A stretch of DNA of 64,000 nucleotides from positions 11,036,001 to 11,100,000 of the forward strand of contig OZ193909.1 in assembly GCA_964276515.1 (NCBI GenBank), written 5' to 3'. Both the position numbers and the translations under genes were made by a program. Below the pieces are notes generated by a model. It was not told the origin of the DNA and ran no database searches. It saw only the letters and a list, made by a program, of their open reading frames with translations. Positions 23,182-26,226 of the stretch are shown piece by piece (position 1 is the stretch's first letter; each line of letters starts with the position of its first letter). The DNA comes from Gordius albopunctatus. Taxonomy: Eukaryota.

Positions 23182-23240
23182 CAGGGAGGACCAGCGGTCC
23201 TCCCTGGGGATGGTTACGCCAACGGTTTCGCCATCTCCAC
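23182..23240. other. Two adjacent GC-rich hairpins at the element 3' terminus
   Basis: Perfect 11-bp inverted repeat CAGGGAGGACC-agc-GGTCCTCCCTG (23182-23206), followed by GGGGATGG...CCATCTCC. Confidence 0.75.
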
Positions 23241-23301
23241 TTTATTTTATTTTATATTTCACAACACTAATATTCAATGCTAAGTATGTAGATATAAATG
23301 A

Positions 23302-23349
23302 AAAAATTTAGGTAAGGACACGTTACGACGGGTAAGACACGCGAAAACA
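23302..23349. repeat. 48-bp direct repeat, 3' copy
   Basis: AAAAATTTAGGTAAGGACACGTTACGACGGGTAAGACACGCGAAAACA, identical to 26179-26226. Confidence 0.97.
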
Positions 23350-23458
23350 CAATAATATTTATCAAAATATAGGTGGTGAATTATAGTAAAGAATTTAGGA
23401 ACTTTTACGGTGTTTAAGCAAAAGCAAACCGGTTGTAGTTCTAGAGTGAATTTTTCAT

Positions 23459-25390
23459 TTATATCGTGTAGTCCTCGTTGGGTAGGTCGTTTGGTGCTGA
23501 GATGAAGGTGCTGATCAGGTCGACCATGTATTGGTCATCGAAGAATTCTCTGGATGGTAAGTCCGCCATATTCTCGTCTGTGGATACCCATTTGAGACCG
23601 TTCTTGATTTTAATGACATGGTCTATACCGATGCTGAGGATGATTTTTGAAAAGGCTCCCTCCAAATGTGGGGCATGTGCGGATCCTTTCTTAAAGATGT
23701 AGAATGCCGTTTTTGAATCGGTGTATATGGCAGGTGTCATGTTCGGGTATTCGACTAGGACTCTTGCGTATGCTAACGGTATGGCTAGTAATTCTAATAG
23801 GTTGATGGTTGGTATGTAGTTTTCACATTTGAACATTGCCAGAGCGTCGGAGGTTCGCATCGACATAAACTCTGCCATGAAGTATATCCCGATGTGTGAC
23901 GTTGAAGCATCCCCATATGCTGAATTATCGTAGCTTGTGACCATAGGCAAGGGTTTTTCTAGTAACATTTTAAGTGCAATGGCCTTACGTGCCAATAGGT
24001 TGATGTTGAATGGAATATTGGTTTCTCCTAACAAGATATTGTATGCTGGTGATAAAAATTTGGTCCACCCTGTGACCATGTAAGTATAATGCGTTAGAAT
24101 CCCTAAGCATGTCTGGGCTACCAAAGGATGTGGTTTCTGCTGGTTAAGGATAAAATGATCTATGATTGTTAGTGCCGCATCAATTTTCCTGAGGAATTTG
24201 TTGTTGATTGAGAGTGTATGATTTTTGAGGTTGATGAAGATTCCCAGGTAATTGAGCATGGTTTGAGGTGTTGTTTGAGATTTTAAGCTGTTTATGCTTA
24301 AGTTCCATTTTCTTGCCAGTTTGGTGAAGGAGCTAGTAGCTTCTTTGACCTTTGCGTAATCATCTCCATAAATAAGTATATCATCCAAATATACGTTATA
24401 TTTTGCTGAATGGATGGATTTGGCACAGAGGTCAAGCATGATTTGCTGAAGTACAAATGGGGAGAAGCTTGCCCCCATTGGCAATACTTTGTATGCATAT
24501 TTTCTACGCCCTGTTTTGAAGCCAAATAAGTGTGAAATGGATGGATCCAATGGAATAGAAAAGAATGCACTTTTCATGTCGATTTTACAGGCAAATGAGG
24601 CCTCTGCTAATGGTTTTGCTATTAAAGGAATAGATTTTAGAGAGAAGGGATACGCGATAAAATTTTTGGAGATGATCGATAAGTCCGCTATCATCCTGGG
24701 AGAGCCATCCGACTTAGGAATAAAGTACATTGGGGAGGGGATGGCTCGGGGATTTTTTCTCACAATGTGTGAGTTGGTTATTTGGGATACCAACTCCTTG
24801 TGACATCTAGGAATGGCTCGCACGTGTTTGGGGGTAAAGTAGAGCCAGTTGTTTGTGGATAATGCCTTCCTAGATATTTTTGGCTTGAAGCCATGTTTAG
24901 CGATATGATTAGTAAAAGGGGATTGGGAGTGATGAGGTCGGAGAATATTAGTATCTAAATCTAGGGGGAGGGGAAAGGGGGTTCGATTACCGTTGGATAT
25001 GTTCCAAAATTCAGGGAAATTGGGCATATTTGAAGGTTCTTGAACTATGGTAGTCGGCTCGCCATCTAATCCGACATCTATAAGGGGGCCATGGAGATGT
25101 TCCGGCACATCGGAATGTTCGGGCAGCGACGTAGAGGGGTGTTCTAAAGGTAGTGACCCCTCGTCCGGACCATCATTGACGGAGATAGAGTTGGTGGCGA
25201 TGCTCCTAGCGATATGAATGAAATTATTCAACCACGTTGGTGCACTCCGTCCACCGTCAATGCTCGGCGGGTATACACCACTGCCGAGGGTCGCCGCTGC
25301 CGTCCTTACATGCTGTCTCTCACTCCTTCCTAGCCTCTGGCGGCCCTTTCCGTTTGACGAAGGGCGCCTTCCTAGGCATAGGCTGTGCAT
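23459..25390 (-). CDS. Reverse transcriptase-RNase H polyprotein, DIRS/hepadnavirus-like (643 aa)
   Basis: RT: SPMYFIPKSDGSPRMIADLS, KIDMKSAFFSIP, LPMGASFSPF, YLDD, YLG. RNase H: GDAS, INLLELLAI, YTDS, ENMADLPSR. No protease, integrase or YR domain. Confidence 0.93.
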   Translation of the reverse strand: MHSLCLGRRPSSNGKGRQRLGRSERQHVRTAAATLGSGVYPPSIDGGRSAPTWLNNFIHIARSIATNSISVNDGPDEGSLPLEHPSTSLPEHSDVPEHLHGPLIDVGLDGEPTTIVQEPSNMPNFPEFWNISNGNRTPFPLPLDLDTNILRPHHSQSPFTNHIAKHGFKPKISRKALSTNNWLYFTPKHVRAIPRCHKELVSQITNSHIVRKNPRAIPSPMYFIPKSDGSPRMIADLSIISKNFIAYPFSLKSIPLIAKPLAEASFACKIDMKSAFFSIPLDPSISHLFGFKTGRRKYAYKVLPMGASFSPFVLQQIMLDLCAKSIHSAKYNVYLDDILIYGDDYAKVKEATSSFTKLARKWNLSINSLKSQTTPQTMLNYLGIFINLKNHTLSINNKFLRKIDAALTIIDHFILNQQKPHPLVAQTCLGILTHYTYMVTGWTKFLSPAYNILLGETNIPFNINLLARKAIALKMLLEKPLPMVTSYDNSAYGDASTSHIGIYFMAEFMSMRTSDALAMFKCENYIPTINLLELLAIPLAYARVLVEYPNMTPAIYTDSKTAFYIFKKGSAHAPHLEGAFSKIILSIGIDHVIKIKNGLKWVSTDENMADLPSREFFDDQYMVDLISTFISAPNDLPNEDYTI

Positions 25391-26198
25391 AATTGCTACG
25401 AAAAGAATTGATTTGTTCGCTCATTTGACCAAATCCGTTTTTAACGGCCCAGTCCTTTGTTTTTCCCGTGACTACTTGCCAACTGTAGTATGTTGCCATT
25501 GCAATGGTCTTTACTTTTTCTGAAAAAACATCGGTGGCCTTTGTATGGTCGTCCCATACTTCCCCCAGTTCGAGTAGGAAGTCAATTTCATGTTTTTGAT
25601 ATGGTGGGACTTGTTTATTTTTCTCATCTGCATCCTTCAACCCTTTAAGCCTGATCTTTAGCAAGTCTTCCCCACTTTGTTCAATGCCGGTTAGCTTTTT
25701 CTCTACTTCTCTCGATATTAATTGATTCAGGGCTTCTTGGGTTATTGTGATAGTATCATTATATGCACTAGTTGACATAATCGGCGGTATTAATTTGGCC
25801 GGCTGTAGTACTGGTTGTTGCCACTGGCTATGCCCACCCCATTGTTGGTTGGGGTTCCAAAAGGGTGCCGGCTGTGAGCGTGATGATTCTTGTTGTTTTG
25901 CGTTTATCATGACAGATAAGTCGTCTTTGATTATTTGTAACTCCCGTGCAAGCCAACTCTTTGTTTGGCCCGATAACGGCGTGCCTGGATCATCTTTAGG
26001 ATCGATTGTAAACCCAGTTGAGTCCATAAACGATCCGTCCGCAACTGCTTGTGTCGCGGAGAAAGGGTTACCTATGGACAGTACCTCGGAGAAGGTGGAT
26101 GTGGAAATGGTGGACGTGGAGGGATTGAGGGATCTTAAAGAGTACGGGACAGAAGTAACAGGTAGGGGCATAAGGGGTAAAAATTTAGGTAAGGACAC
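25320..26198 (-). CDS. ORF1, putative gag/core-like protein (292 aa from GTG; 283 aa from ATG at 26171)
   Basis: Intact ORF upstream of and overlapping pol by 71 nt; helical segment EKVKTIAMATYYSWQVV is reminiscent of the DIRS gag K.I.LAD...GW..V motif; basic C-terminal tail PRKAPFVKRK. Confidence 0.7.
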   Translation of the reverse strand: MSLPKFLPLMPLPVTSVPYSLRSLNPSTSTISTSTFSEVLSIGNPFSATQAVADGSFMDSTGFTIDPKDDPGTPLSGQTKSWLARELQIIKDDLSVMINAKQQESSRSQPAPFWNPNQQWGGHSQWQQPVLQPAKLIPPIMSTSAYNDTITITQEALNQLISREVEKKLTGIEQSGEDLLKIRLKGLKDADEKNKQVPPYQKHEIDFLLELGEVWDDHTKATDVFSEKVKTIAMATYYSWQVVTGKTKDWAVKNGFGQMSEQINSFRSNYAQPMPRKAPFVKRKGPPEARKE

Positions 26199-26226
26199 GT
26201 TACGACGGGTAAGACACGCGAAAACA
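26179..26226. repeat. 48-bp direct repeat, 5' copy (abuts the RTE junction)
   Basis: Identical to 23302-23349; offset 2877 bp. Confidence 0.97.

Follow-up and report, generated by a model that had tools for sequence, protein, structure and literature searches.

An intact two-gene retroelement joined to an RTE LINE in Gordius albopunctatus and its likely distant, non-viral kinship to hepatitis B-type viruses

Coding content of the element

Positions 23182 to 26226 of the window, a 64,000-nucleotide stretch of contig OZ193909.1 of Gordius albopunctatus, hold an intact retroelement copy, in which two ORFs are intact and the catalytic residues of both the reverse transcriptase (RT) and the RNase H are present (Table 1). 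As the first-pass annotation had described, the two uninterrupted minus-strand ORFs (283 and 643 aa) overlap by 71 nt; the ORF1 frame is open from 26225. The pol motifs quoted there were all recovered, namely FIPKSDG (aa 223), RMIADLSIISK (232), LPMGASFSPFVLQ (303), YLDD (334), DAS (494), INLLELLAI (529), YTDS (556) and WVSTDENMADLPSR (601), the last RNase H motif lying ~30 aa before the end of pol. Pfam search of pol revealed RVT_1 alone (E 1e-23). In addition, the thumb carries the hepadnavirus-like pattern T..G....P.Y, and residues 67-165, 45% of which are P, S, E, D or G, are weakly constrained.

ORF1 has no Pfam match at E<=1 and no homologue in the protein database (0 of 519 candidates), the ESM Atlas or the PDB sequences. 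Its single-sequence structure model has a pLDDT of 39.7, too poor for excluding a core fold, and gave no match at E<=0.001 in a fold search. The model of pol has a pLDDT of 37.8 overall and under 50 over residues 1-255; from this low-confidence model the fold search returned generic RT matches.

The coding room left in the element is small. From pol to the 3' end, the other two sense frames contain 43 and 34 stops with a longest open stretch of 91 aa, and the antisense open stretches inside the element reach 167 aa at most, the longest of them (25726-26310) having no Pfam match. No frame is thus roomy enough for a tyrosine recombinase, an integrase or a methyltransferase, as had been claimed for recombinase and integrase from the ORF list, and none of the three was matched by Pfam. 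The tyrosine recombinase is judged absent because coding room is lacking, its own profile being weak (control 6 bits). Protease, DDE integrase and two full LTRs, the traits of LTR retrotransposons and Ortervirales, were not found by Pfam, ORF or repeat reading. A Dam domain is detected by Pfam in the DIRS-type protein P0006 and in L110 and L143, and is absent from pol here.

Table 1. Features of the element and its surroundings (positions in the window)
Feature	Position	Strand	Details and basis
ORF1, putative gag-like structural protein	25320..26171	-	ATG 26171 to TGA 25320; ORF reading, function suggested by position
ORF1 predicted helices			long helix aa 145-184, four more to aa 261; low-confidence model
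pol ORF, 643 aa	23459..25390	-	ATG 25390 to TAA 23459; Pfam, motifs, sister differences
pol domain order			N-terminal ~165 aa weakly constrained, RT, thumb, RNase H
pol catalytic residues			RT D271, YLDD 334-337; RNase H D494, E533, D558, D610
A1, 5' copy of 48-nt direct repeat	26179..26226	-	element 5' end; ORF1 ATG 7 nt downstream
A2, 3' copy of 48-nt direct repeat	23302..23349	-
U, AT-rich non-coding, pol to 3' repeat	23350..23450	-	candidate promoter region
15-bp perfect inverted repeat, left arm	23451..23465	.	overlaps pol stop codon
15-bp perfect inverted repeat, right arm	23291..23305	.	both arms bracket U and A2
Terminal hairpin	23182..23206	.	perfect 11 bp, 3-nt loop, extreme 3' end; candidate self-priming site
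Second terminal hairpin	23207..23239	+	folds better on + (antisense) strand via G-U/G-T pairs
RTE-like LINE	26227..28752	+	5'-truncated, frameshifted; APE-type endonuclease remnant, RT, GAA-repeat tail
Very high-copy host repeat, left part	22948..23180	.	interrupted by element and RTE, resumes at 28753

Ends, insertion site and sister copies

The limits of the element are backed by read joints and by the start point of the RTE LINE. The direct repeat A1/A2 is exact, and the sequence 3' of A1 differs from that 3' of A2. A classical two-LTR reading is ruled out, as the tail that follows A2 is missing after A1. Self-BLAST found A1 and A2 alone, with no B1/B2 repeat pair, inverted terminal repeats or ICR. 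The 15-bp inverted repeat exceeds every shuffled control, none of the 200 shuffles reaching 13 bp (longest, 12 bp). The double-hairpin tail has folding z-scores of -5.7 on the plus strand and -3.9 on the minus strand, and the fold of U is not significant (z -0.15). Rfam gave 0 matches at E<=1, and the idea that the hairpins form a ribozyme or a known RNA was rejected on this ground. Summed contig depth over 23164-23472 is ~2-3 times that of the interior. The direct repeat, the inverted repeat, the hairpin tail and the fusion to the RTE LINE had all gone unmentioned in the first-pass annotation.

At its 5' end the element is joined directly to the RTE LINE in the opposite orientation, so that the two stand head-to-head; the element meets the truncation point of the LINE with no host sequence in between. 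Assembled contigs from two sequencing runs (X1 and X2) supplied the joint and sister data, and the observations given as listed concern 16 of 856 pieces, 15 of 42 joints and 12 of 306 loose ends. A loose end at 26227 is recorded 39 times in X1 and 84 times in X2, where other copies of the RTE extend upstream. Joints from 23180 to 28753, which skip element and RTE jointly, occur in 4 (X1) and 18 (X2) contigs; one letter fits both sides, so at most 1 nt is duplicated. Element and RTE are therefore co-located at a single site of the high-copy repeat. On this one insertion, it is likely that the element and the unrelated LINE were copied into the chromosome together.

Contigs matching the element at >=80% numbered 278 and 509 in the two runs, and among those listed the long pieces are 81-100% identical and the sister copies 81-92%. 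The best-supported sister differences listed are synonymous at 17 of 17 sites in RT/RNase H and at 11 of 13 in ORF1, compared to ~22% of all possible single changes; in pol residues 1-165, 3 of the 9 listed are synonymous. These proportions are signs that the genes of a small, low-copy family are under purifying selection. Moreover, an X2 contig with 20 differences over 243 nt (23361-23603) crosses from pol to the 3' region without an insert; thus in at least one sister, at 92% identity, pol runs into the 3' end without a recombinase, and the longer sister with a recombinase ORF downstream of pol that had been envisaged was not seen in this one contig spanning the junction. Indels at 23450 and 23519 have equal depth, which suggests a second sister with the same junction. 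No sign of amplified free DNA was seen in contig depth, a weak indicator that is not a copy number.

Relatives and phylogenetic placement of pol

Similarity search revealed two close relatives and no others, both of them proteins of the horsehair worm Gordionus sp. m RMFG-2023 (LOC135926043, XP_065317776.1; LOC135924076, XP_065315196.1), with 38% and 35% identity over ~72% of pol (E 2e-93 and 9e-83). They are annotated as uncharacterised and lie on contigs of 64 and 94 Mb. Like pol, they lack a methyltransferase; one ends just past the RNase H, and Pfam matches nothing in the short tail of the other. In one of the two, part of RT motif A has been lost. The three proteins form a clade, supported at 100/99 by RT alone and in the combined trees, and at 98/98 by RNase H alone. 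No related locus was found in viral or metagenome contigs, and no published description of this element in a literature search. Motif scans led to hepadnaviruses, caulimoviruses, Gypsy and DIRS-order loci, with no nackednavirus, proto-nackednavirus or HEART sequence among them; many other scan matches (e.g. L010, L104) fell by chance in phage genes and were discarded.

The sequence of pol is a mosaic, with an RT core leaning towards the DIRS order and a thumb of hepadnavirus type, in agreement with the mixed character that had been noticed by eye. The RT core scores 70-84 bits against five of eight DIRS-order RTs (the remaining three 43, 12 and 0), whereas all seven hepadnaviruses score 24-53 bits, lower than the best DIRS-order values. 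By contrast, the thumb pattern occurs in 3/3 proteins of the query clade and 7/7 hepadnaviruses but in 0/8 DIRS-order proteins. The RNase H end motif, earlier counted as a hepadnavirus likeness, was rejected as a marker, as P0006 has it too.

Trees of RT, thumb and RNase H placed the query clade with the hepadnaviruses at 93/90, with the DIRS-order rows in a separate clade (87/81) and Gypsy and caulimovirus rows split off at 99/99. A tree without three long rows gave 89/91. Without the thumb, RT plus RNase H gave 67/77 for the same grouping, whereas RT alone put the query clade weakly with a DIRS-type protein (83/73). The trees left out HEART, nackednavirus and proto-nackednavirus sequences; the branch joining query and hepadnaviruses, both of which are long branches, is below the tool's threshold in every tree, and a DIRS clade was not rejected by AU tests (p 0.476 and p 0.079). 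A sister relationship of the query clade to hepadnaviruses, at 67-93% bootstrap, is hence suggested and never conclusive. Of the claim that the lineage lies between DIRS elements and hepadnaviruses, the adjacency to hepadnaviruses is borne out by the trees containing RNase H, and a DIRS placement was not rejected. The RNase H affinity is not unique, because VIPER RNase H is reported to group with hepadnaviruses as well (PMC6681497). In the ESM Atlas, a hepadnavirus Protein P was found for pol at 0.93, behind unnamed clusters at 0.96-0.93. Altogether, the element is likely related to hepatitis B-type viruses, at a distance and without being a virus itself.

Proposed origin and route of entry

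Gong and Han (2018) reportedly described HEART as hepadnavirus-like retroelements of arthropods. Our best reading of the element is an integrase-free retroelement of HEART grade, with a LINE having captured its antisense cDNA. It is a new form of a kind already known. More specifically, we propose, with about an even chance of being right, a low-copy two-gene family without an integration enzyme, of HEART grade and on the hepadnavirus branch, which likely makes linear single-stranded antisense cDNA and likely enters chromosomes passively, this copy through capture by an RTE LINE.

We infer from sequence features that the element would provide for priming, packaging and strand transfer. A transcript would run from A1 to the terminal hairpin, and the ORF1 protein would package this RNA with Pol. 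Self-priming at the 3' hairpin may then start the first strand, an antisense DNA that would finish at its 3' end with the complement of A1. A1/A2 could act in strand transfer as R does in an LTR, and the 15-bp stem would delimit the part that is copied. For DIRS-1, PMC7192593 describes a linear single-stranded antisense cDNA without its left end and proposes a 3' hairpin as primer. During insertion of the RTE, its cDNA would have jumped, or been joined, to the 3' end of the antisense strand, the end at which the orientation of element and RTE requires this template to have been entered. Such a jump would yield a head-to-head, RNA-length copy, exactly as found. In vitro, template jumping onto single-stranded DNA is described for a non-LTR RT derived from R2 (PMC8594491). 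R2 is reported to jump only from the 5' end of a template, which means that the RTE RNA has to have been broken beforehand.

An alternative that we consider rather unlikely is a DIRS-order lineage (Ngaro/PAT/VIPER-like) that lost its recombinase long ago, kept gag and pol, and normally integrates with one that relatives supply in trans, the pull towards hepadnaviruses being long-branch attraction. The RT core profile, the RT-only tree and the AU tests are consistent with it, as are a gag overlapping an RT/RNase H ORF without a protease (ORF1 being gag by position), a 3' terminal hairpin, and a 5' repeat found again near the 3' end, which recalls the split direct repeats described in PMC6681497 and PMC7192593; the latter also reports that DIRS-1 RT works in trans. 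Moreover, 24400-24502 and 25263-25311 draw extra contigs with flanks matching nothing in the window, so more distant genomic relatives may exist. Nevertheless, the tyrosine recombinase is missing and, because there are no B1/B2 repeats, inverted terminal repeats or ICR, the ends are unable to rebuild the circle junction needed for recombinase-mediated integration. The methyltransferase that follows RNase H in DIRS-like and PAT-like subgroups, and that P0006, L110 and L143 possess, is also missing, the thumb is of the other type, inclusion of the thumb leaves the DIRS rows in a clade of their own that excludes the query, and the copy is fused to a LINE. Far less probable is a one-off internal deletion that removed recombinase and B1 from an ordinary tyrosine recombinase retrotransposon. 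The order A1-gag-pol-A2-tail equals an Ngaro-type element minus these parts, and the contigs listed are a minority of the total; however, the 8%-diverged X2 sister has the identical pol-to-3'-end junction, the paired indels suggest another such sister, and the nearest proteins do not belong to canonical DIRS or Ngaro elements.

The locus might instead be the chromosomal fossil of a non-enveloped episomal virus basal to Blubervirales, with ORF1 a divergent capsid, the pol N-terminus a rudimentary priming domain and the diverged copies separate captures, which we regard as improbable, between the two foregoing explanations. The size of ~3 kb, the upstream core-like ORF overlapping pol, the lack of an integrase, the thumb, the N-xAD.PSR spacing of the RNase H and the position in the RNase H-containing trees are all shared with Blubervirales, and several copies that diverge by 8-19%, with synonymous differences, agree with recurrent capture out of an evolving population. 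Residues 38-40 of pol read GVY, a variant of the terminal-protein motif given for Pliego virus in PMC11551314, and PMC12691608 reports a proto-nackednavirus without a detectable core. However, PF00242, PF00336 and PF00906 gave no match here, whereas control hepadnaviruses match strongly, and the terminal-protein and core profiles scored -2.6 bits on the pol N-terminus and -2.4 bits on ORF1, which has no sequence match to core protein. The weakly constrained stretch of pol and a Tyr-40 codon altered in most of the depth at that position also count against this reading. The RT fingers are of the SP.F.IPK type, compared to TG..FLV.KN in all hepadnavirus and proto-nackednavirus rows, and a DR1/DR2 and epsilon layout was unrecognised. 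The sequence after each repeat differs, unlike a unit-length circle, no circle joint occurs among the 15 of 42 joints listed, and relatives are absent from the viral and metagenome contigs. Identity as a blubervirus is rejected because a terminal protein, a sequence match to core protein and circular redundancy were not found, and for these reasons, together with the weak depth indicator, the earlier description as episomal or virus-like is not upheld.

A bolder version of the preferred HEART-grade reading, which we rate as rather unlikely, is a living integrase-free lineage of horsehair worms and kin between DIRS and hepadnaviruses that lost its recombinase, persists as hairpin-primed extrachromosomal DNA inside ORF1 particles, enters genomes only through capture by LINEs and bears in its GVY N-terminus a terminal-protein precursor. 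This copy would then be the first complete anatomy of a pre-viral stage of the hepatitis B lineage. The locus bears on the open question of how hepadnaviruses arose from retroelements, and offers a copy with both genes intact and both ends defined, sister copies showing signs of purifying selection, and a junction pointing to capture of antisense cDNA by a LINE, a route that would account for the entry of such elements into genomes. Three questions become testable: whether the recombinase was lost before protein priming arose, whether the fold of ORF1 is that of a hepadnavirus or of a retroviral capsid, and whether hitch-hiking keeps integrase-free retroelements in genomes. Were the DIRS explanation true, the lineage would still be an old one under selection, devoid of a recombinase and unusual in its ends.

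HEART elements are endogenous invertebrate RT elements adjoining Blubervirales whose mobilisation is called 'not yet resolved'; PMC12440569 portrays these proposed intermediates as enigmatic, small in number and frequently mutated. Compared to them, the copy here is intact with defined ends, and its host group appears different. By eye, seven tick HEART RTs have YxDN/HLDN and LPFG(I/L)RP where pol has YLDD and LPMGASFSP, whereas both share F.L(K/D/P)(S/P)LP, PF.(M/L)QQ and the thumb entry Q..xG...xY.

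Coding capacity and termini of the element

The element is real, intact and unusual. As the first-pass annotation had claimed, it is filled by two overlapping ORFs, which share 71 nt, and offers no space for an integration enzyme: the two remaining sense frames contain 43 and 34 stops and the longest antisense open stretch is ≤167 aa, leaving no room for a recombinase, integrase, protease or methyltransferase. Pfam recognized RVT_1 in pol but nothing in ORF1. Pol has RT aspartates 271, 336 and 337 as well as all four acidic positions of RNase H (494, 533, 558 and 610), aligned with those of the reference proteins, and P/S/E/D/G make up 45% of pol residues 67–165. 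Both structure models (ORF1 and pol) are usable in the RT palm alone. No second copy was found in the window, where fragments of the host genes cohesin SA and Vps16 lie in AT-rich DNA.

Features of the element and its surroundings, in window positions
Feature	Position	Strand	Remarks
Element	23182-26226	-	intact, two ORFs
ORF1, 283 aa	ATG 26171 to TGA 25320	-	frame analysis
pol, 643 aa	ATG 25390 to TAA 23459	-	frame analysis; RVT_1 by Pfam
A1, 48-nt repeat	26179-26226	-	5' end of element, 7 nt before ORF1 ATG
A2, 48-nt repeat	23302-23349	-	110 nt beyond pol stop
Perfect 15-bp inverted repeat	23451-23465 / 23291-23305		flanks AT-rich stretch and A2
RTE-like LINE	26227-28752	opposite to element	5'-truncated, frameshifted; GAA repeats at end
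Cohesin SA/SCC3 HEAT domain fragment	48861-49391	+	host gene
Vps16 fragment	52154-55917	-	host gene

The 48-nt sequence occurs exactly twice, as the 5' copy A1 and the 3' copy A2. None of 200 shuffles produced an inverted repeat longer than 12 bp, compared to 15 bp in the element. Two adjacent hairpins make up the last 58 nt, the outer one being a perfect 11-bp stem; this tail folds with z-scores of -5.7 (antisense strand) and -3.9 (sense strand), equalled by 0/200 shuffles, and matched nothing in Rfam. The ends fit none of the two-LTR, DIRS ITR/ICR, full split-direct-repeat or unit-length-circle layouts.

Relatives and phylogenetic placement of pol

Of the 7996 candidates scored, just two closely resemble pol, both encoded on chromosome-scale contigs of the horsehair worm Gordionus sp.: LOC135926043 (38% identity, E 2e-93) and LOC135924076 (35%, E 9e-83). 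A profile search for pol relatives added no further close member, and no ORF1 homologue was found in the protein database, ESM Atlas or PDB sequences. Read past Gypsy and retroviral families, ESM Atlas related pol to three unnamed clusters of 550–655 aa (0.96–0.93) and to hepadnavirus Protein P (0.93). A literature search covering few subscription journals returned no description of the element or of nematomorph DIRS or HEART elements; further background came from PMC12440569, PMC6681497 and PMC12241316.

Reference sequences came from RT motif pattern scans of viral and metagenome contigs, which yielded hepadnaviruses (confirmed by PF00242/PF00336), caulimoviruses, Gypsy and DIRS-order loci, the last bearing Dam-like domains and overlapping recombinase-like ORFs; unnamed loci were assigned to groups here by domain content. 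After removal of near-duplicates and chance hits, 36 rows were retained in the RT tree and 25–26 in the others. One metagenome locus, L148:239-3203, has a very divergent RT/RNase H ORF with a recombinase-like ORF downstream and no Pfam match at E<=0.01; it is possibly VIPER/TATE-like.

The query clade (pol and the two Gordionus proteins) was recovered in every tree with support of 98–100, all trees being built without HEART, nackedna- and proto-nackednavirus rows. In the RT-only tree (189 columns) it falls inside an unresolved DIRS plus hepadnavirus group, weakly joining reference protein P0003 (83/73), and in the RNase H-only tree it groups with hepadnaviruses and the DIRS-type P0006 (94/88). 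P0006, whose pol has a Dam-like domain, also displays hepadnavirus-type RNase H end spacing. Query and hepadnaviruses group at 67/77 in the RT+RNase H tree, at 89/91 once three long DIRS rows are removed, and at 93/90 in the contiguous RT-thumb-RNase H tree (388 columns), where the 8 DIRS-order rows form their own clade (87/81). The thumb motif T..G....P.Y is found in 3/3 query, 7/7 hepadnavirus and 0/8 DIRS rows, at thumb scores of only 1.5–8 bits. A query plus DIRS grouping is not rejected by AU tests (p 0.476 and 0.079), and the RT core is closer to DIRS by profile; the mixed character noticed by eye persists, divided between RT core and thumb. On balance, the hepadnavirus side is the more probable placement. 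By its defining features, the element belongs neither to DIRS nor to Blubervirales. Tick HEART RTs (PMC12691608) differ from pol in their catalytic motif (YxDN/HLDN) and resemble it elsewhere by eye; HEART was compared via its RTs, and its anatomy could overlap with features called new here.

Sister copies and insertion site

Two public runs of one study (X1 and X2), used as contigs only, either of which may be the window's own source, gave 278 and 509 contigs, respectively, on the element at 80% likeness, covering 30/30 bins. The sister tables rest on 16 of 856 pieces, 15 of 42 joints and 12 of 306 loose ends; among the matches listed, long pieces are 81–100% identical to the element. We tested 39 ORF differences, namely 36 of the 40 best-supported rows (1059 more exist) and three others, picked by read support rather than at random. 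Among the best-supported differences listed, 17/17 in RT/RNase H and 11/13 in ORF1 are synonymous but only 3/9 in pol residues 1–165; the synonymous share of all possible single changes is about 22%.

Direct joints from 23180 to 28753 were found in 4 (X1) and 18 (X2) contigs, where a single letter is compatible with either side; neighbouring rows displace the joint by 1–3 nt. Thus, element and LINE sit together within a single site of a very high-copy repeat, where ≤1 nt is duplicated and no host DNA separates them; insertion in one event would be the simplest reading. The 5' end of the element abuts the LINE truncation point head-to-head, so that the LINE cDNA, if it was extended further, must have used the antisense strand of the element as template, beginning at the 3' end of that strand. 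Template jumping onto single-stranded DNA has been seen in vitro for a truncated R2 RT (PMC8594491). The same picture would result if element DNA had been joined to the LINE 5' junction by a repair-type process.

Proposed replication and chromosome entry

We consider the chances about even that this is an integrase-free element of HEART grade, whose transcript would start at A1 and end at the hairpin, which may self-prime copying, with A1/A2 putatively serving strand transfer and chromosome entry presumably occurring by capture. It would work like a DIRS-type cDNA producer, minus the integration step: for DIRS-1, PMC7192593 reports linear single-stranded antisense cDNA with the left end missing, and a 3' hairpin of DIRS-1 as proposed primer.

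A DIRS-order lineage devoid of recombinase and aided in trans, which the RT profile favours and the AU tests do not reject, and from which the RT-thumb-RNase H tree and thumb motif point away, appears unlikely. We regard captured episomal viruses basal to Blubervirales as improbable. The terminal-protein and capsid folds considered by the first-pass annotation gained nothing from profiles, as the hepadnavirus terminal protein (pol residues 1–210) and core (ORF1) profiles both scored below zero. GVY at pol residues 38–40, matching a terminal-protein motif variant of Pliego virus (PMC11551314), is a lead only, because it is three residues long and, among the best-supported rows listed, its codon is non-synonymously changed in most of the depth. 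Exact-copy long contigs have depths of 158–177 (X1) and 578–824 (X2), similar to diverged RTE pieces (168–246 and 424–591), and so do not point to free, amplified DNA, contig depth not being equivalent to copy number. A one-off deletion, which a sister with a tyrosine recombinase ORF after pol would have indicated, seems very improbable: one X2 contig covers 23361-23603 ungapped with 20 differences, and thus in a sister ~8% diverged, too, pol is followed directly by the 3' region. In another record, a joint from 23262 to 23580 links the tail with the pol end.

Several minor observations concern related sequences. Just beyond the ORF1 stop, 49 nt (25263-25311) match 20–33 contigs at a summed depth 10–30 times that of the rest, with flanks matching nothing in the window; they may mark a conserved signal or a motif common to a more abundant relative. 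At the RT motif-B region (24400-24502), 8 extra contigs per run match and then diverge, which suggests further related RT families in the genome. Two diverged sister pieces (23456-23964 and 25314-25790) have depths of 63 and 33 in X1 and 619 and 631 in X2, unlike the X2/X1 ratio near 3–4 of other pieces; insertion polymorphism or variable abundance is possible. Nearby, a minus-strand fragment of very high read depth (22565-22946), followed by a poly(A) tract (22536-22554), carries an RPDG...DFTC...KY pattern, which we assign to the restriction-like endonuclease that ends non-LTR elements of the CRE/R2 type. Nested long inverted repeats at 20298-20848 and 21811-21865 (arms 92, 55, 55 and 29 nt) are probably a MITE or foldback element, and a GAGAC-rich tandem repeat occupies 29667-29818 with three to four copies of a 32-nt unit.
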